A DNA stretch of 15,486 bases from a virus, in the IMG/VR virus record IMGVR_UViG_3300045988_126454, positions 1 to 15,486 of that record; one strand, 5' to 3'. The notes under the pieces are model-generated. The model worked only from the letters and a program-made list of their open reading frames with translations, ran no database searches and was not told where the DNA came from. Within the stretch, counting starts at the first letter, position 1. Each line of letters starts with the position of its first letter. The translations under genes were made by a program, and so were the position numbers. This document shows positions 6,795-15,486 of the stretch, one piece after another.

Positions 6795-7943
6795 TTACCT
6801 ACCTTTCCCTAAAAATGGTTTTAAATAGTATATAAACGGCGTTTTTCTCGCGCTTGGAATAGGCGCTACACCGGATATATTGATTGTACATTCTTGATAA
6901 ATATTTGTATCACTTAATACAAAAAAACGTATAATAATTTTCCGCAATGCTGTAACATTTACTTTAATATAACAATAACCTCTTTCTTTTTTAACAAGTT
7001 CCGCTCCGTTTGGTACGCTAACTCCCCAATCATAATTTGATCTTACATTAAATCTAACAACAGTACCAACGTTTGCTTGTTGGCTGTAGGGTGTAACGTT
7101 AATCTCCGGCGCGGGCGGCGCGGGTCTGTTTATACCAATCTGGCATTGCGCTGTAATGCTCTGATCTTCAACTAACCAAAAACTTACAACACTTGTAACT
7201 TGCGCACCGTTTGCATTGCTGCTAATAATCAAAGCATTAGTTTCTTTTGTTGCTGTTAGATACTGACCGATGCTATAAGTCCATTCCGAGTTAGCATTAA
7301 CAGTAATTCTAATACTTTCCCCATCTACTATACTAGCACTAATAGGGTCTATTGTCAACACTTTTATTTCCGGCGGCAAGTTACCATGCATATCATCGTA
7401 AACATCCATACTACAAGCAAAACGATAATCTTGGACATCTTGCCCCTGCAAGGTTGGATTTTCAAAGTTTTTAAGCACATATGTGCTCGCTGTGCGCATA
7501 TCTGTAGCATTTCGTAAAACCTCAAGTGTACTCGCGTATGTAGTCTGTAACTCATATGACAAGTAATAGACAGCTAACTCAACACTTCCTATACTGCTAT
7601 ATCCACCGCTTTTCCATGCATCATAATAACCTGTCTTACGCGTGTAGTATGTCCATTGTGCCAACCCATAACCCTTATGCACTGTATCTCCGTCTAAACC
7701 GCTATTTATAAACTGCTCGCGTGTTACAGTACCATTATCTACACTGTTAGTATAAATACGGCTTCTATTAAAAAAATTTGTACTATTATTATCGTTTTCG
7801 CACCTATAAGGCACAATTCCACTTTCCGCCCATAAGTTACCAAGCAAAGCCGCCAACCCTATTTCGTTATTAATTAAATTATATAAGCCGTTCCACACCG
7901 CCCTAGTATAACCATAATCACGATAGTCCGATCGTCTACCCAT
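6795..7943 (-). CDS. Peptidoglycan hydrolase, phage-tail-lysozyme-like N-domain plus two tandem beta (Ig-like) domains
   Basis: The motifs LLGNLWAESG and GYGLAQWT are typical of the phage tail lysozyme family as I recall it. Two roughly 85-aa beta-rich repeats are separated by RPAPPAPE. The ATG at 7943 overlaps the ATPase TGA stop by 1 nt. Confidence 0.6.
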   Translation of the reverse strand: MGRRSDYRDYGYTRAVWNGLYNLINNEIGLAALLGNLWAESGIVPYRCENDNNSTNFFNRSRIYTNSVDNGTVTREQFINSGLDGDTVHKGYGLAQWTYYTRKTGYYDAWKSGGYSSIGSVELAVYYLSYELQTTYASTLEVLRNATDMRTASTYVLKNFENPTLQGQDVQDYRFACSMDVYDDMHGNLPPEIKVLTIDPISASIVDGESIRITVNANSEWTYSIGQYLTATKETNALIISSNANGAQVTSVVSFWLVEDQSITAQCQIGINRPAPPAPEINVTPYSQQANVGTVVRFNVRSNYDWGVSVPNGAELVKKERGYCYIKVNVTALRKIIIRFFVLSDTNIYQECTINISGVAPIPSARKTPFIYYLKPFLGKGR

Positions 7944-8995
7944 CACATCAACCTCACACTAAGTATATCAAGCACAATATCTTTACATTTCAAATCTTTA
8001 AACCTCAACAACCCAAGGTCATAACTCCTCTTAAGATAGTCATAGATAAAACTATGACTACTCAGCATCAAAGTGTCTGCGTTATGACTGCTAGCATCAA
8101 ACGTAAACCGATATTTACAGCTCTGATCGACAGTATGATCTACATACACAATTCCTTTTTCTGGATATTCTCTTATGGCATAGCTATCTTTTCCAGAAAT
8201 GAGTGTAAAAATGTATCTACTGTTTCCGCTTACGCTTTCAACAAATGCGGTAGCATCACACATGTAAATGCCATCAGCGCTACTAATCTGATAGGTGCTA
8301 TCTTTAAAAATAATACCTAACTTGCAAAGTTTTAGTGCATTTTGCGCGTCTTTATTAACAACAAACTGCGCAACCCATCCATGACCTCGCAAAAATTTAG
8401 TGTTATCTCTTAATCTCTTATGTATACCAAAAAAAATAAAATAGGGATTCAAAAGAGTTACATAATTGCCGAGCATATATACAGGTACTTCCCTAACCTG
8501 TTTACCTTTACCACGGCATATAGTTCGCAATGTACTCTCAAATTTTGTCAATTCATGCTTTAAATAACCATTATTTTCAAGTACAAATTCATCAAACACA
8601 ATAAGTTCTACATCTTTAAACATTGGGCTGTATTTTTTAAGTTTATCAGTGTTGTTAAAGTATACAGCATAGCCAAGTAATTTAACATTATCATCTTTAT
8701 CATGTAACATCATAGCACTAATTAAACCCTTTACAACAGTTTTATTAGTTACAACTTTTCCGCACTCTGGACAAGTGTCCAGAATATCTTCATACATTTT
8801 TCCACTGCTCGATATTTCATCCTGTGTTCTGTATAAAAAAACAACTTGCTTATCATTCTGTACATTTTTCAAAGATTCAATCAGAAGCGCTGTAGTCTTT
8901 CCGGCACTACGATTTCCGATAATCATTCTTAAAATCGGTTCTTCGTTATCCAAGTCTTTTACATTTTTTATACTATCAAGATTATAAAAAGCCAT
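7943..8995 (-). CDS. DNA encapsidation (packaging) ATPase, phi29 gp16-like
   Basis: Walker A GNRSAGKT and Walker B LIVFDEF are present. NPYFIFF matches NPYFLFF of phi29 gp16. Size is 350 aa versus 332. RBS GAGGGGGAAACGTA. Confidence 0.85.
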   Translation of the reverse strand: MAFYNLDSIKNVKDLDNEEPILRMIIGNRSAGKTTALLIESLKNVQNDKQVVFLYRTQDEISSSGKMYEDILDTCPECGKVVTNKTVVKGLISAMMLHDKDDNVKLLGYAVYFNNTDKLKKYSPMFKDVELIVFDEFVLENNGYLKHELTKFESTLRTICRGKGKQVREVPVYMLGNYVTLLNPYFIFFGIHKRLRDNTKFLRGHGWVAQFVVNKDAQNALKLCKLGIIFKDSTYQISSADGIYMCDATAFVESVSGNSRYIFTLISGKDSYAIREYPEKGIVYVDHTVDQSCKYRFTFDASSHNADTLMLSSHSFIYDYLKRSYDLGLLRFKDLKCKDIVLDILSVRLM

Positions 8996-9012
8996 TACGT
9001 TTCCCCCTCAAA

Positions 9013-9083
9013 CTGGACTAGCGGGAATCGAACCCGCATTGACGGAATCAAAATCCGTTGTCCTACCGTTAGACGATAGTCCT
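9013..9083 (-). tRNA. tRNA-Gln (anticodon UUG)
   Basis: Manual cloverleaf: acceptor AGGACTA/TAGTCCA, U8, D stem GTCT/GGAC with GG in the loop, anticodon stem ACGGA/TCCGT with loop TTTTGAT, T arm GCGGG-TTCGATT-CCCGC, discriminator G. CCA is not encoded. The layout parallels Bacillus tRNA-Gln, except position 1 is A (A1:A72 mismatch) instead of U. Confidence 0.85.
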
Positions 9084-9088
9084 AGAAA

Positions 9089-9108: not shown

Positions 9109-9438
9109 TTATTTTTTCGGTGCTTTCTCCAAGATTTCTCTAATCTTTTCCGGCACTAAGCTTTTATTTATCCGGCTTACATTTTCCAAAATACTGCCGA
9201 TTTCCATCAAAATAATATATACACAAATACTCTCAAACACCGGAACGCTAAAGCCCATATCAAGAAAACTCTGTCCGTAGTCAATCAAAAACCCAACAGC
9301 CACAATGACGATTTCACCGAACTTGTTAAAAAGTCCGTCACGCATCACACTGCTGTTAAAATTACTGTTTTTAACTGCCATAACAATTCCCGTGATAAAA
9401 TCAAGCACAATAAACAACATTACAATTACAATACTCAT
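9109..9438 (-). CDS. Holin (Phage_holin_4_1-like, 3 predicted TM segments)
   Basis: Three hydrophobic segments are present. The motifs LDFITGI near the N-terminus and YIILMEIGSILEN in the last TM are typical of that holin family as I recall it. The C-terminus is charged. RBS GAGGAGAAA. Confidence 0.8.
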   Translation of the reverse strand: MSIVIVMLFIVLDFITGIVMAVKNSNFNSSVMRDGLFNKFGEIVIVAVGFLIDYGQSFLDMGFSVPVFESICVYIILMEIGSILENVSRINKSLVPEKIREILEKAPKK

Positions 9439-9453
9439 TTTCTCCTCTTTTCT

Positions 9454-9773
9454 GCGGCGGTAGCAATTAACAGAATTACCGCCGCGTTGGTAGTTTTAGA
9501 GTTTCGCGGTATCGGCTCGCACCAACCACGGCGCGGGGCACGGTTTTTCCCGTCAGTTTACGCCCACAAAAACCAATCCGGTACTACTCCACACACTCCA
9601 ATTACTCGGACATAGGACATTTTCGTAAGGAATTTAGTAATTGAAGTGTGTGCAATAGTACCATATAAATTATGTTTTATGCCATGTACGGCAAGCCATG
9701 CCGCTCCATGCCGTTTTTTGCCGTACATGCCATAAATGCCATTCTTACGCCGTGCAATGCCGTGAATGGCATT
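9454..9773 (-). ncRNA. Candidate structured non-coding RNA locus (function unknown; a pRNA-like role is only a hypothesis)
   Basis: A 346-bp gap without a credible ORF. Six hand-verified helices are detailed in the findings. Two of them contain a position that is G:U on the minus-strand transcript but C:A on the plus strand. The region looks locally GC-rich by eye. Confidence 0.45.
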
Positions 9774-9784
9774 ACACGGAGATC

Positions 9785-10183
9785 TTACCGATTAAACGGA
9801 TTGTACGGCTCTGCCGGAACAAGCTTTGAAATGTCAATGCCCTTAAGGTATGCGCTCTGGTACTTCTTGCCCTTGTACTTACCCTCAACAACCTTAAATG
9901 CAATTTCAACTTCGGAATCAGCGCCGATTTCTTCCGCCTTAATTGCTGTCTCATCGTCTGGATTCTGCTCAACACCGTCAAGATAGACCGGAAAACTGAA
10001 CTGCGTGTGCGCCTTTACAAGCTTTGTGCCGTCATCGGACGTCTTAACCGGACAGTCAATTTCGGTGTTCAGACCCGCTTTTGAGATCAGTTCCGCCGCG
10101 GCTTCATCTGTGATCTCTACCATAATGGAAAACTTACCATCATTTGAAAATGTGGAATATACTCTACCTGTTGCGTATAACAT
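9785..10183 (-). CDS. Putative OB-fold ssDNA-binding protein (gp5 analogue), 132 aa
   Basis: Located in the replication/early region. The beta-rich pattern with IGADSEVEIAFKVVEGKYKGKKYQSAYLKGI resembles phage SSBs of the T7 gp2.5/DUF2815 type as I recall them. The call is weak and mostly positional. RBS AAAGGAGAAAAAAGAT. Confidence 0.35.
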   Translation of the reverse strand: MLYATGRVYSTFSNDGKFSIMVEITDEAAAELISKAGLNTEIDCPVKTSDDGTKLVKAHTQFSFPVYLDGVEQNPDDETAIKAEEIGADSEVEIAFKVVEGKYKGKKYQSAYLKGIDISKLVPAEPYNPFNR

Positions 10184-10280: not shown

Positions 10281-10562
10281 TTACTTCTTTGACGCTTTGT
10301 AGGCATCATACTCTTCTGCTGTCATTGAGTTCTCAATGAACGTGGACAACGGCATGAAGCGGGTTTCCTCTTTACGGTCAACCTCAATCAGATTACCCTT
10401 TGCAATACCGAAAGACGCTAAAATCTCGTCTCTCTCCGCCGCTGTAGTAATCTCATGATCCCACTCTACAACATCCCCCATTTTAATACCATCTTCTGCC
10501 GATACCGTCATAATCTGGTATAATACTTTTGTTGGGATAGTTCTGGAAATTACCTTTTCCAT
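10281..10562 (-). CDS. Hypothetical small acidic protein (93 aa)
   Basis: ATG at 10562 is preceded by AGAAAGAGAGGAAAACAAA. No family recognised. Confidence 0.6.
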   Translation of the reverse strand: MEKVISRTIPTKVLYQIMTVSAEDGIKMGDVVEWDHEITTAAERDEILASFGIAKGNLIEVDRKEETRFMPLSTFIENSMTAEEYDAYKASKK

Positions 10563-10611
10563 TTTGTTTTCCTCTCTTTCTTTGAATAATGTAGCGAAAA
10601 CTGCGTAGCTT

Positions 10612-10640
10612 GTTATAGCTTGCCATCGTCAGACTGTAAG
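10612..10640 (-). promoter_or_regulatory. Possible sigma70-type promoter (CTTACA-17-TATAAC)
   Basis: On the minus strand the -35 CTTACA is at 10635-10640 and the -10 TATAAC at 10612-10617, with a 17-nt spacer. It lies about 45 nt upstream of ATG 10562. Confidence 0.3.
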
Positions 10641-10657
10641 TTGCTATCTTTTCAGTG

Positions 10658-10677
10658 ACGGGAGAATGTTCTCCCGT
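10658..10677. other. Hairpin ACGGGAGAA/TTCTCCCGT directly after ORF 10685-10948
   Basis: 9-nt perfect inverted arms (10658-10666 and 10669-10677), 7 nt after the TAA stop. The T-rich tract (TTTCGGCTTTA) follows on the plus strand, not the coding strand. Confidence 0.55.
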
Positions 10678-11497: not shown

Positions 11498-13645
11498 TTA
11501 TTCGCAATTATCTATAAAATTTTTTCCTATAATTTCCGAGTATTCATCGGTAATGCCTAGAGTATAAGTTGTGTCAATTATGGCTATATTTGACGCTGTT
11601 GTAAACGTTGATTTTTTACCTATATAATCTGTTATTGTTATCGAATGTATGCTCGATTCATTGAAATAAGACACGGTGCGACCAGAATCAGTAAATAACT
11701 TTCCAATTTTAAAATCAGAAATTCCGTTTCCGCGCTCTAACTCTTCCGCACCTTTTTGTTTTGAAAGTCCAGATACAGTAACATGTAACTTGTTATCTTT
11801 GCTATCTATGTATGCGTACTTTTTAGCACCTAGCGTTTTAAATTTTTTATAATTACCATCGTCATCCCATATCCCTAAATAAAAACGCGTTACAGTACCA
11901 TCCTCATTTTGACGATCTGCATAATTGCGATAACGTTGTTTTTTTGCTAATAAGTAATCATTTCGATCTTTAAAGCTTTGTAAATGCTGTTTTCCTATAA
12001 ATTTTACACTATCAGTATCAGCATAGACAAAGTCCCACCCAACGGCATCTATCATCTTTTGCAACTCCCAACGCGCATTGGCAGTAATATAAACTCCCCA
12101 TTGATAAAGCAAAAATGAATTTTTTGATGTAGAATACTGTGCTATTGATTCTATTAAATCCGGTGTAGCCTTAGACCATTCGCCATTATCGTAAACTATT
12201 TCATCGTGACATATATCTGTAACCATCGTACCAAAAACAGAATTTAAGCTATTTTTACTTTTCATATACTCATATTCTTTTCCTTTTACGTCCTTAAGCT
12301 GTGTTTTTTTGTCGTAAAAATCTAACATAGTGCTTACTATTGGCGCGGGCAGATAATCTTTTTTCGCCATGTAACCGCATATCCACTCTATGCCCTCAAA
12401 ATGATATTGATTGCAGATAATGATAAAATCTAGTTCTGTGCAAGCATACGTTACCCATTCAGCCGATAACACGCGCCCGTTGTCGTTTATATACTCTTTA
12501 CTAAATGATGTACAATGCGCAAAGTCTATATATGGCACTGTAACATCGTCATGTAGTGTTATAGATTTAAAAGTAACTTGCATAATTATAGCGTTTTTCT
12601 TTTTGTTACAATCAGATAATAATTGTGTAAAGTTTTTTGGTATATACTCTATAAACGGTGTCATAGGGTACAAATCCGAGCATATACATGCTGGATAACT
12701 TGATACTCTATCCATACTGTAAACGTTGTCTATGATTGCGTCTGCATAATATCTGCTAGCATGAGTATTTCCTCCGCGAAAAGCTTTTCGCAATAGTGTA
12801 TATACTGCAGGCGTAGGCATTAGACTTTCGAATAATTCTCTATAATGTTTGTCCTCTCTGCAAGCTTTGCGCATTTCACGCCGCACATATCCGGTCGAGG
12901 TCAAAGGTATTGTTGCCAACGTGTCGTTATAATCATCCAATTTTGATAAAATACATTCCTCTAGTCCTTTTACATCGTTATAATCATATGATAACTCTGT
13001 TTCTGTTTGCGGCGTATCTGGTGTCCGTATTTTTTTATAATCATATCTATCTTCTAGTTTGTGATGAACACAAAATTTTGAGTTTTCGCAAAACTTTGCT
13101 AAACTCATATTTGACAAAAAGTAGCTACACCTAAATTCAAAATGCGGAAATGTTTCACGTGAAACATCTAACCTGTTTACCGTTCTTAAATAATCAGACT
13201 TTAAACAAGCGTTAAATTTAATAATCTTGTGCGCTTCACGTGCAAAAAGAGATTCGATATATAAAAAATCCTTTACAAACATAAATTCATAAGCTAAATT
13301 ATGAACATATATAACTAATTGTTTTGATGCTGATAATTCTAGGTATTCCCCTAGCTTGCTTAAAAACTTTGTAAATTCTTCCCAACGTGTGCCAAAACAA
13401 ACATTTCCTTTGTAAGAAAACTGCCAATGGTACATAAATGCATAAGGTTTTTCGCTGTTTATTGTTGTAGTTTCTATATCAAATGTTGCAGGACTATCTA
13501 TATAAGCAATAGCCCTTTTCCCTTTTTTTCTGACTGTAGTATAATTCCAATTTATTAGATTATATGGATAATCGTATACTGTGTAAACTGTTTCATTTTT
13601 TGCATATTCTTTCCCGTTTTTCGTATAAAATGTTTGTATTACCAT
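11498..13645 (-). CDS. Protein-primed family-B DNA polymerase (phi29 gp2-like), 715 aa
   Basis: Motifs occur in canonical order: ExoI FDIETTT, ExoII YVHNLAYEFMF, ExoIII YDYNDVKGLEE, motif A DRVSSYPA, motif B KSKNSLNSVFG, motif C YADTDS, and KxY GAKKYAY. Its ATG overlaps the upstream gene's stop (ATGGTAA). Confidence 0.93.
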   Translation of the reverse strand: MVIQTFYTKNGKEYAKNETVYTVYDYPYNLINWNYTTVRKKGKRAIAYIDSPATFDIETTTINSEKPYAFMYHWQFSYKGNVCFGTRWEEFTKFLSKLGEYLELSASKQLVIYVHNLAYEFMFVKDFLYIESLFAREAHKIIKFNACLKSDYLRTVNRLDVSRETFPHFEFRCSYFLSNMSLAKFCENSKFCVHHKLEDRYDYKKIRTPDTPQTETELSYDYNDVKGLEECILSKLDDYNDTLATIPLTSTGYVRREMRKACREDKHYRELFESLMPTPAVYTLLRKAFRGGNTHASRYYADAIIDNVYSMDRVSSYPACICSDLYPMTPFIEYIPKNFTQLLSDCNKKKNAIIMQVTFKSITLHDDVTVPYIDFAHCTSFSKEYINDNGRVLSAEWVTYACTELDFIIICNQYHFEGIEWICGYMAKKDYLPAPIVSTMLDFYDKKTQLKDVKGKEYEYMKSKNSLNSVFGTMVTDICHDEIVYDNGEWSKATPDLIESIAQYSTSKNSFLLYQWGVYITANARWELQKMIDAVGWDFVYADTDSVKFIGKQHLQSFKDRNDYLLAKKQRYRNYADRQNEDGTVTRFYLGIWDDDGNYKKFKTLGAKKYAYIDSKDNKLHVTVSGLSKQKGAEELERGNGISDFKIGKLFTDSGRTVSYFNESSIHSITITDYIGKKSTFTTASNIAIIDTTYTLGITDEYSEIIGKNFIDNCE
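13150..13167. repeat. 18-bp perfect palindrome ATGTTTCACGTGAAACAT (copy 3), inside the polymerase coding sequence
   Basis: Identical to copy 2. It encodes DVSRETF in the polymerase frame. Confidence 0.95.
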
Positions 13646-14383: not shown

Positions 14384-15103
14384 TTATGATTCTGTAATCA
14401 GCACATTATAACCGCTTTTCTCAAGTGCGGCTTTCAAATTTGCGGCATTTTGCGCATTGTGAAAAGCACCTTTCTGATCTAATACGCAGACACGGTAGAT
14501 CTTGCCGGCACCTATAACTTCTGAAACGTCCTCTTCATCTTTCTCCAATGTTTTTTCCGATTCATCCGTGCCAATGCACCTTGTACCAGTGATCCCGTAA
14601 ACAATAGCCGCCGCCATTTCCTCAGCGTTGTATAACGATACATCTTTTTCAGAGCCTACAAAGCAACATTCGATAATGACGGCAGGGGCTTTTGTCTTAC
14701 GCAAAAAGTACAACTTTTCTGACTTTTTAACTCCGCGATTCTTAAAACCAAGCGAACAAATTGCATTTAAAATGTCGGTAGCTTTATCCACGGCTTTTGA
14801 TTTATCGTTATACACCCATGCTTCCGCCCCATTAGCCGCCGCAGAACTTGACGCGTTAAAGTGTATTGACAAATCAAGATCAACCGTGTGCGCATTTGAC
14901 TTCTTTACAATCTTAGTCAGCACATCAGACTGTGTAAGACCGTTTTCAACTGTACAGTCATAAACGGTGTGACCCATGCGCCGTAGTTCATCGACCACAA
15001 GATCTTTTACACGTCTGTTTTCCAAAGATTCTGAAATCAGACCTACAGCGCCGCAAGCTACTTTTCCGTGCGGGTTGTGCCCAGCATGTACATTAATTAC
15101 CAT
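14384..15103 (-). CDS. N-acetylmuramoyl-L-alanine amidase (Amidase_3) endolysin with a C-terminal SPOR-like domain
   Basis: INVHAGHN and LSIHFNAS match the Amidase_3 zinc-ligand motifs. The C-terminal KIYRVCVLDQKGAFHNAQNAANLKAALEKSGYNVLI resembles a SPOR repeat. RBS AGAGAGGGAATTAAA. No signal peptide is evident. Confidence 0.8.
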   Translation of the reverse strand: MVINVHAGHNPHGKVACGAVGLISESLENRRVKDLVVDELRRMGHTVYDCTVENGLTQSDVLTKIVKKSNAHTVDLDLSIHFNASSSAAANGAEAWVYNDKSKAVDKATDILNAICSLGFKNRGVKKSEKLYFLRKTKAPAVIIECCFVGSEKDVSLYNAEEMAAAIVYGITGTRCIGTDESEKTLEKDEEDVSEVIGAGKIYRVCVLDQKGAFHNAQNAANLKAALEKSGYNVLITES

Positions 15104-15198: not shown

Positions 15199-15486
15199 AG
15201 TTATCCACATCGAACAAGTGTTCGTGCTAGACGGACTAATGGTGTCCGTCTACCGCGGACACTGTTTTTTCGTGTTGTGCGAACAACTTTGAAAACTCGT
15301 TCAATTGTCTGAAAACTTAAAAATCAATATGCATTATGCACAAAGATTTAGTAGATCTTTGTGCATTTTTACTATTGACAAATTGGAATAGATCAACTTT
15401 TAGGTTGCGAATTTAACATCTGATTTATCGAACGTATGTTTGTCTTTTTGGGGAAAACAGTGTCCGCGCTACACGGACTATGTAAC
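15199..15486. repeat. Right inverted terminal repeat (ITR-R), 288 bp
   Basis: Perfect reverse complement of 1-288, ending at the last base of the window. Confidence 0.95.
15336..15371 (+). terminator. Mirror copy of the ITR hairpin/T-tract, facing the right genome end
   Basis: Same 12-bp stem (15336-15366) followed by TTTTT on the plus strand. No plus-strand gene is known to need it. Confidence 0.35.

Follow-up and report, generated by a model that had tools for sequence, protein, structure and literature searches.

A conserved structured RNA upstream of the holin gene in phi29-like human-gut phages, probably a divergent packaging RNA

The IMG/VR virus record IMGVR_UViG_3300045988_126454, analysed here over its whole length of 15,486 bp (hereafter the window), is the complete genome of a phi29-like podophage, and its intergenic stretch 9439-9784 encodes a conserved structured RNA of about 290-330 nucleotides (nt) on the minus strand. 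We propose that positions 9508-9662 of this stretch are the packaging RNA (prohead RNA, pRNA) of the phage clade to which the window belongs, in a divergent and possibly circularly permuted form, and we put the probability of this reading at roughly 0.6. The RNA contains a three-way junction with the helix order of phi29 pRNA, which phi29 requires for packaging its DNA, and in relatives whose packaging ATPases are 35-46% identical to that of the window the ATPase gene is immediately followed by a canonical pRNA-like RNA. An earlier sequence-only reading of the same DNA had raised a pRNA-like RNA as one of several options for this locus, and that idea is now the best-supported reading of the gap.

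The gap has exactly the 346-nt extent first assigned to it and is, as was claimed, the largest internal non-coding stretch of the genome, the remaining internal gaps being about 120 nt or less. Its high GC content was also correctly noticed (0.47 vs about 0.38 elsewhere), though it is not unique in this respect, two coding regions having values of 0.47-0.49. Regarding its coding capacity, mechanical open reading frames (ORFs) of 56 amino acids (aa) on the minus strand and of 42, 43 and 104 aa on the plus strand have no match in PHROG and are broken by indels in relatives, whose gaps measure 333-359 nt with length differences that are not multiples of three; the description of the locus as ORF-free hence stands, and a protein-coding reading of the 56-aa minus-strand ORF was rejected on the same two grounds. 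Searches with the flanking proteins recovered 35 IMG/VR loci and a DNA pattern recovered 22 gut metagenome contigs, the gap being conserved at the same place in 57 human-gut contigs. These fall into a main clade and a sister clade (L031-L035 and others), the latter with an ATPase 77% identical and a 132-aa protein only 35% identical. Pattern searches were anchored on the invariant heptamer UGGAGUA; stricter and looser DNA patterns returned the same two clades from IMG/VR and the metagenomes and nothing further, so that no additional loop covariation could be obtained. Scans of genome collections with the gap pattern and with the ATPase gave no matches and therefore no clue to the host, a human-gut bacterium that is probably a clostridial Firmicute, and a BLAST comparison with 50,697 phage records, made with the window and with the gap alone, gave no match either. 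In Rfam, where a known family had been thought worth seeking, the gap matches no RNA family above threshold: the whole window and the gap together yielded only the tRNA described below and sub-threshold microRNA-precursor matches, which arise because long hairpins are present.

Folding and covariation identify the transcribed strand. The minimum free energy (MFE) of the minus strand is -144 kcal/mol vs -100 ± 5.5 for shuffled sequences (z = -8.0, with 0 of 100 shuffles as good), in line with the structured minus-strand transcript that had been predicted, and the plus strand folds with z = -5.6. MFE folds of the sister-clade sequences, computed independently, show the same architecture made of different helix sequences. 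A covariance model of the 3' domain, R1, rests on an alignment (A4) of 59 sequences, 17 of them distinct, in which 99.5% of cells are standard pairs vs 34-39% when the partners are slid by 1-3 columns; changes are seen on both sides in 15 of its 25 pairs, and several positions are G·U in minus-strand RNA where plus-strand RNA would have C·A. The G·U pairs and compensatory changes thus show a structured RNA made from the minus, coding strand, as the sequence-only reading had it. Whole-gap covariation was checked on a sequence-only MAFFT alignment, in which hairpin d has compensatory changes at four pairs inside the main clade, and helix e is invariant there save for G·U changes (AU18/GU10). The comparison of homologous loci therefore favours a conserved RNA, with 57 contigs keeping the gap and compensatory changes falling in hairpin d and in the junction. 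Hairpin d recurs in the sister-clade MFE folds with other helix sequences, its apical loop varies in length and sequence, and the internal motif UAUUGCA/UGGAGUA is invariant in both clades although the helices that flank it covary.

The six helices proposed from the sequence, named a to f, are all present where they had been placed: a, d, e and f coincide with inverted repeats I8, I1, I2 and I7, and b and c can be found by eye. Some details needed correction, since helix e spans 19 nt rather than 12 bp, and hairpin d, described as having a single odd position, contains a G·G mismatch and two G·U pairs. As to which helices evolution has kept, d and e qualify, and a and f in part, whereas b and c do not. 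Helix b, whose distal half varies without compensation, has no counterpart in the sister clade and is in competition with hairpins D and a; helix c (9542-9548/9568-9574), a U-tract/A-tract pairing, takes up bases of the covarying E hairpin, and sister-clade sequences have no such U-tract. Hairpin a occurs in the main clade only, with one G·U and no variation among 30 sequences, and it is absent from the sister clade; this invariance and this restriction neither support nor refute its pairing. Helix f is one among several competing pairings in a repeat-rich stretch. The conserved fold holds four helices beyond these six, A', C, E and D (Table 1). A long-range helix between the 5' and 3' ends in the MFE fold, UCUCC/GGAGA, was discarded as spurious, its pairing in relatives reaching only 64%.

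These four helices make up the core, 9508-9579, which contradicts the initial impression of no resemblance to phi29 pRNA, as the two RNAs share the order of the junction, the size of E and the AACC/GGUU loop pair. Taking the RF00044 consensus as the phi29 reference (its positive control scores 145 bits), the same elements follow one another from 5' to 3' in both: helix A, helix C with the CE bulge, E and D. The E hairpins have identical sizes, 4 bp with a 6-nt loop; the CE loops, 9 nt in phi29 (GAUUAAACC) and 8 nt in the window (GUAAACUG), end in AAAC(C) in phi29 as in the window family; and the D hairpin has 6 bp and a UGGUU loop in phi29 vs 5 bp and a GUGGUU loop here, two of the D pairs being compensatory and one changing from G·U to G-C. 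Both junctions are rich in U, and U-rich junction bulges are described for phi29 pRNA (PMC5066667). Moreover, both RNAs are encoded by the same type of genome, that of a podophage with a gp16-type ATPase and a gp10-type connector, the two being recognised in the window by PHROG. The differences are of proportion and of context. The closing helix A of phi29 pRNA is formed by the RNA termini and its counterpart in the window is A', of 8 bp; the joint from A to C has 1 nt in phi29 and 6 nt, U-rich, in the window; helix C has 9 bp with a bulge vs 4 bp (4-5 bp across the family); and the joint from C to D is UUU vs a single nucleotide. The window RNA has neither domain II nor a terminator, and it lies in the middle of the genome, upstream of the holin gene of a human-gut phage, whereas phi29 pRNA is encoded at the left genome end behind an early promoter in a phage of Bacillus.

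In phi29, neighbouring molecules are joined by pairing of AACC in the CE loop of one with GGUU in the D loop of the next, which builds a ring on the prohead (PMC5066667, PMC12670572). In the R1 alignment the equivalent segments, CE columns 33-36 and D columns 64-67, are complementary over 4 bp in all 17 distinct sequences, with changes at one pair (AU11/CG6) and at another (CG16/UG1). The loops read AACC/GGUU in the window family, AACU/GGUU in the window itself, where a U·G pair is kept, and CACC/GGUG in the sister clade, an A-U pair having been exchanged for C-G between the two clades. Taken alone, the complementarity of the CE and D loops in the window family is suggestive.

Additional evidence comes from more distant relatives. 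An ATPase profile added 64 more distant gut loci (35-44% identity), about 40 of which have an ORF-free region of 150-340 nt starting right at the ATPase stop codon. The RNAs of one family, hereafter type 1, fold at their MFE into a textbook pRNA with a terminal A helix bearing a 3-nt bulge, a three-way junction, CE, E and D elements and an intrinsic terminator (RNA about 115 nt, A helix 20 bp, C helix about 10 bp). RNAalifold on a plain MAFFT alignment finds compensatory changes in 19 of 24 pairs, and the covariance model of this family, R2, finds matches in 57 of 63 loci and, in a second set, in 76 of 78, always on the ATPase strand and within about 50 nt of the ATPase stop. Over the 55 distinct sequences of the R2 alignment, 90.7% of cells are paired vs 31-42% when slid, and 32 of the 33 pairs have changed on both sides. 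All four pairs between the CE and D loops covary, the outer ones as AU28/UA14/GC4/CG1 and AU36/CG8/UA1; in a parse independent of the model, cognate loops form at least 4 Watson-Crick pairs in 12 of 19 cases vs 12% for shuffled and 15% for non-cognate loops, and more than 10 different duplex sequences are represented. A type-1 RNA is carried by CS229P1, a cultured phage of Clostridium symbiosum. In type-1 genomes (L153:5992-7180, CS229P1) the ATPase gene and the RNA are the only unit on the opposite strand, lying between the structural and the replication modules, which suggests that the ATPase is co-transcribed with its RNA. Type-1 RNAs are not detected in an Rfam search, and R2 finds no match in phi29, Cp-1, HM2, L118, L119, L121, L122 or L142.

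The window belongs to the same phage group as the type-1 carriers (ATPases 35-39% identical), and its RNA has in common with theirs the three-way junction, the CE bulge, the D hairpin and covarying CE/D loops; the E hairpin of type 1 is CGG-GUGAAAGAAA-CCG and that of the window CGG-GAAAAA-CCG. Type-1 RNAs have an A helix formed by their termini, a longer C helix and their own terminator, features that the window RNA does not have. The base of hairpin d, GGUACUAUUGCAC, looks like the sequence with which type-1 RNAs begin, GGUAUCUGCAC; this likeness was set aside as probably coincidental, since it is absent in the sister clade. The nearest relatives of the window ATPase, in Clostridium phage HM2 (LT600745, 43.7% identical) and at loci L118, L119, L208 and L209 (42-44%), are followed by a second family, type 2, whose junction is near that of the window in size: C helix 5-6 bp, CE loop 7 nt, D helix 5-6 bp and a 6-nt joint, with 5 bp, 7 nt, 6 bp and 6 nt respectively in the RNA of L118, the nearest outgroup. 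Their CE and D loops are complementary over 5-7 bp and covary (GUAGUCU/AGACUAC in HM2, and AACUA/UAGUU, GUAGU/ACUAC, UGACU/AGUCA and GACUA/UAGUC), and in the HM2 subgroup an extra hairpin makes the junction four-way. The genes of HM2 are co-directional, as are those of the window. Type-2 RNAs differ from the window RNA in lying 3' of the ATPase gene with a terminator and in having an A helix formed by the termini; their E hairpin is CCC-UAAC-GGG, and they have no sequence similarity to the window RNA or to type 1. Further RNAs after the ATPase gene, missed by R2, were seen at L121:4913-5060, L122:5220-5330 and L142:7042-7160, the first with CE/D loops ACCA/UGGU and the last with a three-way junction of different proportions. 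Possession of a pRNA-like RNA thus appears to be general among these phi29-like phages.

In the window clade and its sister there is no gap after the ATPase gene, the next ORF overlapping the ATPase stop, and 9439-9784 is the only sizeable non-coding region. With the post-ATPase RNA absent and the same junction found in the sole sizeable gap, the simplest reading is that the window RNA is the packaging RNA. The two arrangements are alike in placing the RNA between replication module and ATPase gene; the closeness of RNA and ATPase gene noted from the sequence is looser than in relatives, since holin and tRNA lie between them here. By analogy with phi29, the three-way junction (A', C/E and D) would bind the portal vertex of the prohead, and the CE loop (AACC, or AACU in the window) would pair with GGUU in the D loop of the next RNA to form a ring. 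Hairpin d adjoins helix A' without a linker, its 3' arm running straight into the 5' strand of A', so that the two can stack into one long helix; stacked in this way they might form the spoke on which the gp16-type ATPase docks, d standing for the distal part of the A helix and the UAUUGCA/UGGAGUA motif around the G·G mismatch being a likely protein contact. The distal end of such a spoke would be closed by the variable apical loop, and the strand break would fall between the 5' end of d and the 3' end of A'. A closed distal end and a break at the junction amount to the topology of a circular permutation, and an RNA of this topology can sit inside a longer transcript that runs on into holin, tRNA and ATPase. 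Engineered phi29 pRNAs with a circular permutation were reportedly active in packaging (Zhang, Trottier and Guo 1995, cited in PMC3753930 and PMC1636484).

We accordingly entertain, as a tentative extension, that in the window clade prohead RNA has been circularly permuted by nature and forms part of the leader of the late transcript that encodes holin, tRNA and ATPase. The A helix, ancestrally open at its end, would have been closed by the variable loop of hairpin d, the break moved beside the junction and a 5' domain of 120 nt added; one molecule would be part of the late mRNA at first and then, whole or processed, would enter an ATPase-docking ring on the prohead. If so, expression of the lysis and packaging genes would be coupled to the assembly of the motor, and, considered with types 1 and 2, pRNA would be ancestral and general in the phi29-like motors of gut phages infecting Clostridia.

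Several observations weigh against the identification of this RNA as a pRNA. RF00044 matches nothing in the window as a whole (E <= 1) or in 9420-9800 (E <= 10), which is weak evidence because known pRNAs share only about 12% of their sequence (PMC5066667). With a threshold of E <= 1, R2 finds no match in the window, L031 or L034, R1 finds none in phi29 or in the 64 distant loci, and no covariance model connects the phi29, type-1, type-2 and window RNAs. Support for a loop-loop contact in the window family amounts to one independent compensatory event and one G·U. About 10% of shuffles show a 4-bp match between loops of this kind by chance, and C (4-5 bp) and D (5 bp) are similar enough in length for an intramolecular contact. 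Whereas pRNA has a long A helix built from its two ends, with a bulge on which ATPase binding depends, A' does not join the RNA ends; it has 8-9 bp and a 5' strand continuous with the closed hairpin d, and its coaxial stacking on d is inferred. The 5' domain of about 120 nt has no counterpart in pRNA. As to expression, the RNA is placed as a leader of the holin gene and a discrete small RNA is not evident; a scan of the gap minus strand for promoters and terminators of consensus types found no sigma-70-type promoter and no intrinsic terminator, and a discrete transcript of about 120-174 nt with its own promoter and terminator could not be recognised. The RNA may be processed out of a longer transcript, which is compatible with the absence of consensus signals. 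Finally, the N-terminus of the portal protein, MKNQSKD, is weakly basic and less so than that of phi29, a reservation that the sequence-only reading had also expressed.

The position of the RNA at the head of the holin-tRNA-ATPase-structural transcript also invites an explanation of another kind, which we consider unlikely: a cis-regulatory leader that senses a ligand, a protein or temperature and controls translation of holin and the late genes, or read-through into them, and with it the timing of lysis and packaging, its loops kissing within one molecule in the manner of a purine riboswitch. Purine riboswitches have a three-way junction in a 5' leader and two arms of like length with complementary loops, all of which the window RNA shares, the lengths of C (4-5 bp) and D (5 bp) permitting an intramolecular contact. 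In the window RNA, one of the two loops is an internal bulge followed by a further hairpin, an 83-nt hairpin and the 120-nt 5' domain are added, and neither an Rfam match nor a conserved expression platform is found. The RNA lies directly upstream of the Shine-Dalgarno (SD) sequence of the holin gene with no terminator between, for hairpin a is not followed by a U-tract and is thus not an intrinsic terminator. Moreover, CUCU in the single-stranded tail is complementary to the AGAGG of this SD, a pairing predicted in the sister-clade folds only; in the main clade CUCU/AGAG amounts to 4 bp and is absent from the MFE fold. In the same clade the 12 bp of helix b compete with hairpins D and a, and no model ties the window RNA to pRNA. 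Yet an expression platform is not conserved, since the sister clade has neither a nor b and changes in the distal part of b are uncompensated, and neither the window nor the gap matches a riboswitch or leader in Rfam. A leader would also leave unexplained why hairpin d is long and conserved and has an invariant internal motif, and why the window clade is without the post-ATPase RNA that is carried by 133 related loci.

Hairpin d, a long and near-perfect duplex of 27 bp with one mismatch, could alternatively be an RNase III site within an element for RNA processing or stability at the boundary of early and late genes, the other helices protecting the new ends; we regard this as improbable. It would suit a genome in which all genes are co-directional and the gap has no promoter or terminator consensus, and the downstream tRNA also implies that the transcript is processed: tRNA-Gln(UUG) is encoded on the coding strand between holin and the packaging ATPase, where the late transcript must therefore undergo processing. 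Such an element explains neither the covarying three-way junction with its conserved complementary loops nor the invariant asymmetric motif in d, and it is compatible with the proposed packaging RNA, which processing could serve, as it is with a leader.

Regarding the 5' domain, six of the 16 copies of GGCAT in the genome (minus strand) lie in 9683-9761 with spacings of 9-10 or about 19-21 nt, and the sister clade has three GCAT at an exact 10-nt spacing; this cluster could represent protein binding sites on DNA or RNA. An element acting at the DNA level, with regulator binding sites or a late promoter region chiefly in the GGCAT-rich stretch 9676-9777 and inverted repeats serving as operators, has very little probability in our estimate. 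The clustering of the six copies within about 80 bp, the many competing palindromic pairings in this stretch and its location where a late promoter is expected speak for it. Over most of the gap, however, the tolerance of G·U on the minus strand only and the compensatory changes in d and in the junction favour RNA, the gap minus strand has no sigma-70-type promoter, and tandem repeats are weakly detected, Tandem Repeats Finder giving low scores to the 10-nt GGCAU periodicity; at most, such an element could account for the 5' domain. In the sister clade the 5' domain folds into three different hairpins within an enclosing helix: an outer helix, GCCGC/GCGGC, spans the 5' domain, hairpin d and the junction and closes the RNA of about 290 nt into one multi-branched fold (L031-L035, L191). 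No clear equivalent of this outer helix is found in the main clade.

According to reviews as recent as 2024-2025, prohead RNA occurs in no phages other than phi29 and its relatives in Bacillus (PMC5066667, PMC11476376, PMC12670572); the seeds and hits named in a 2025 search, by which 12 pRNAs were added, are all from Bacillus phages (PMC12670572). The statement that pRNA is documented only in Bacillus relatives of phi29 was thus nearly right; the sole exception we found is a pRNA of the Streptococcus phage Cp-1, also phi29-like, proposed by Martin et al. in 1996 as cited in PMC6266182, where Bacillus-based models are said not to recover it. This putative RNA is unannotated in NC_001825 and was not identified by R2 or by folds of three Cp-1 gaps. 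A search of the full-text literature, with most subscription journals outside its reach, returned no report of pRNA in gut or Clostridium phages. The window, type-1 and type-2 RNAs are absent from Rfam and unannotated in the GenBank records examined, and types 1 and 2 are families of the pRNA kind that have probably gone unreported. RNAs with all the structural hallmarks of pRNA therefore stand beside the packaging ATPase gene in about 130 gut phage contigs and in the cultured phages CS229P1 and HM2, at a time when the role and the origin of prohead RNA are still debated. If confirmed, they would widen the comparative set to several families without shared sequence, from which the features of pRNA needed by the motor could be deduced, and would provide cultured, distant systems in which to ask whether dependence on RNA is general for phi29-type motors. 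The window RNA would moreover be a natural experiment on RNA permutation and on embedding in mRNA, and new self-assembling three-way-junction and kissing-loop modules would become available to RNA nanotechnology.

Table 1. Positions of the RNA elements, of the genes around them and of the RNAs of relatives (window numbering unless another record or locus is named)
Feature	Position	Strand	Description
Intergenic RNA locus	9439-9784	minus	346 nt; from stop of 132-aa ORF (9785) to holin start (9438)
5' domain (RNA nt 1-122)	9663-9784	minus	two hairpins; GGCAU/AUGCC-rich
5'-domain hairpin	9752-9761/9768-9777	minus	repeat-finder inverted repeats
Hairpin e	9676-9694/9718-9736	minus	19 bp; inverted repeat I2
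Hairpin d	9580-9662	minus	9 bp, G·G mismatch, 17 bp, 29-nt apical loop; I1, 27-nt arms
Internal motif of d, 5' half UAUUGCA	9651-9657	minus	pairs with 9585-9591 around G·G mismatch
Internal motif of d, 3' half UGGAGUA	9585-9591	minus	invariant in 35/35 sequences
Three-way-junction domain (pRNA-like core)	9508-9579	minus	R1 model and alignment
Helix A'	5' strand 9572-9579, 3' strand 9508-9516	minus	8-9 bp, one bulged A
U-rich joint UUUUGU, A' to C	9566-9571	minus	unpaired in covariation-supported structure
C helix	9562-9565/9536-9539	minus	4 bp; compensatory changes at 4/4 pairs
CE bulge loop GUAAACUG	9554-9561	minus	8 nt; AACU 9555-9558 complementary to D loop
E hairpin ACGG-GAAAAA-CCGU	9540-9553	minus	4 bp and 6-nt loop; compensatory changes at 3/4 pairs
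D hairpin GCGCC-GUGGUU-GGUGC	9519-9534	minus	loop 9524-9529, GGUU 9524-9527
Single-stranded tail GCGAAACUCUAAAAC	9493-9507	minus	kept in both clades as GCGAA(A/C)CUCUAAA
Hairpin a	9454-9485	minus	9 bp, 14-nt loop; 6 nt upstream of holin SD; I8
Inverted terminal repeat	1-288 and 15199-15486		perfect, 288 bp
Endolysin	14384-15103	minus	opening gene at 'early' genome end
B-family DNA polymerase (protein-primed type)	11498-13645	minus	PHROG polB, 2.5e-54
132-aa ORF	9785-10183	minus	small ORFs between polymerase and this ORF
Holin	9109-9438	minus	PHROG 199, E = 4e-12; SD GAGGAG 9442-9447; first ORF 3' of RNA
tRNA-Gln(UUG)	9012-9084	minus	ARAGORN and Rfam, 59.9 bits
phi29 gp16-type packaging ATPase	7943-8995	minus	PHROG 2150, E = 4e-47
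383-aa lysin-like protein	6795-7946	minus	endolysin-like N-terminal domain; directly after ATPase
Type-1 RNA	L124-L181 ~7027-7200; L211-L286 ~2224-2390	ATPase strand	R2
Type-1 RNA, Clostridium phage CS229P1 (OP172772)	~10552-10666 (L205:2560-2674)		unannotated 180-nt gap
Type-2 RNA	HM2 LT600745 L206:4540-4640; L118/L207; L119/L210; L208; L209		after ATPase

All genes of the window are on the minus strand. Beyond the lysin-like protein that follows the ATPase come the major head, tail, upper collar and lower collar proteins, as recognised by PHROG, with E-values of 7e-59 for the upper collar connector and 1e-33 for the lower collar protein. Two lysin-like genes are present in the window, at 14384-15103 and 6795-7946. 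The genome is bounded by a perfect inverted terminal repeat; an Rfam microRNA-precursor match at its hairpin 98-173 is spurious, and this palindromic hairpin is found in each copy of the repeat together with an internal inverted repeat of 25 nt (9-33/219-243).

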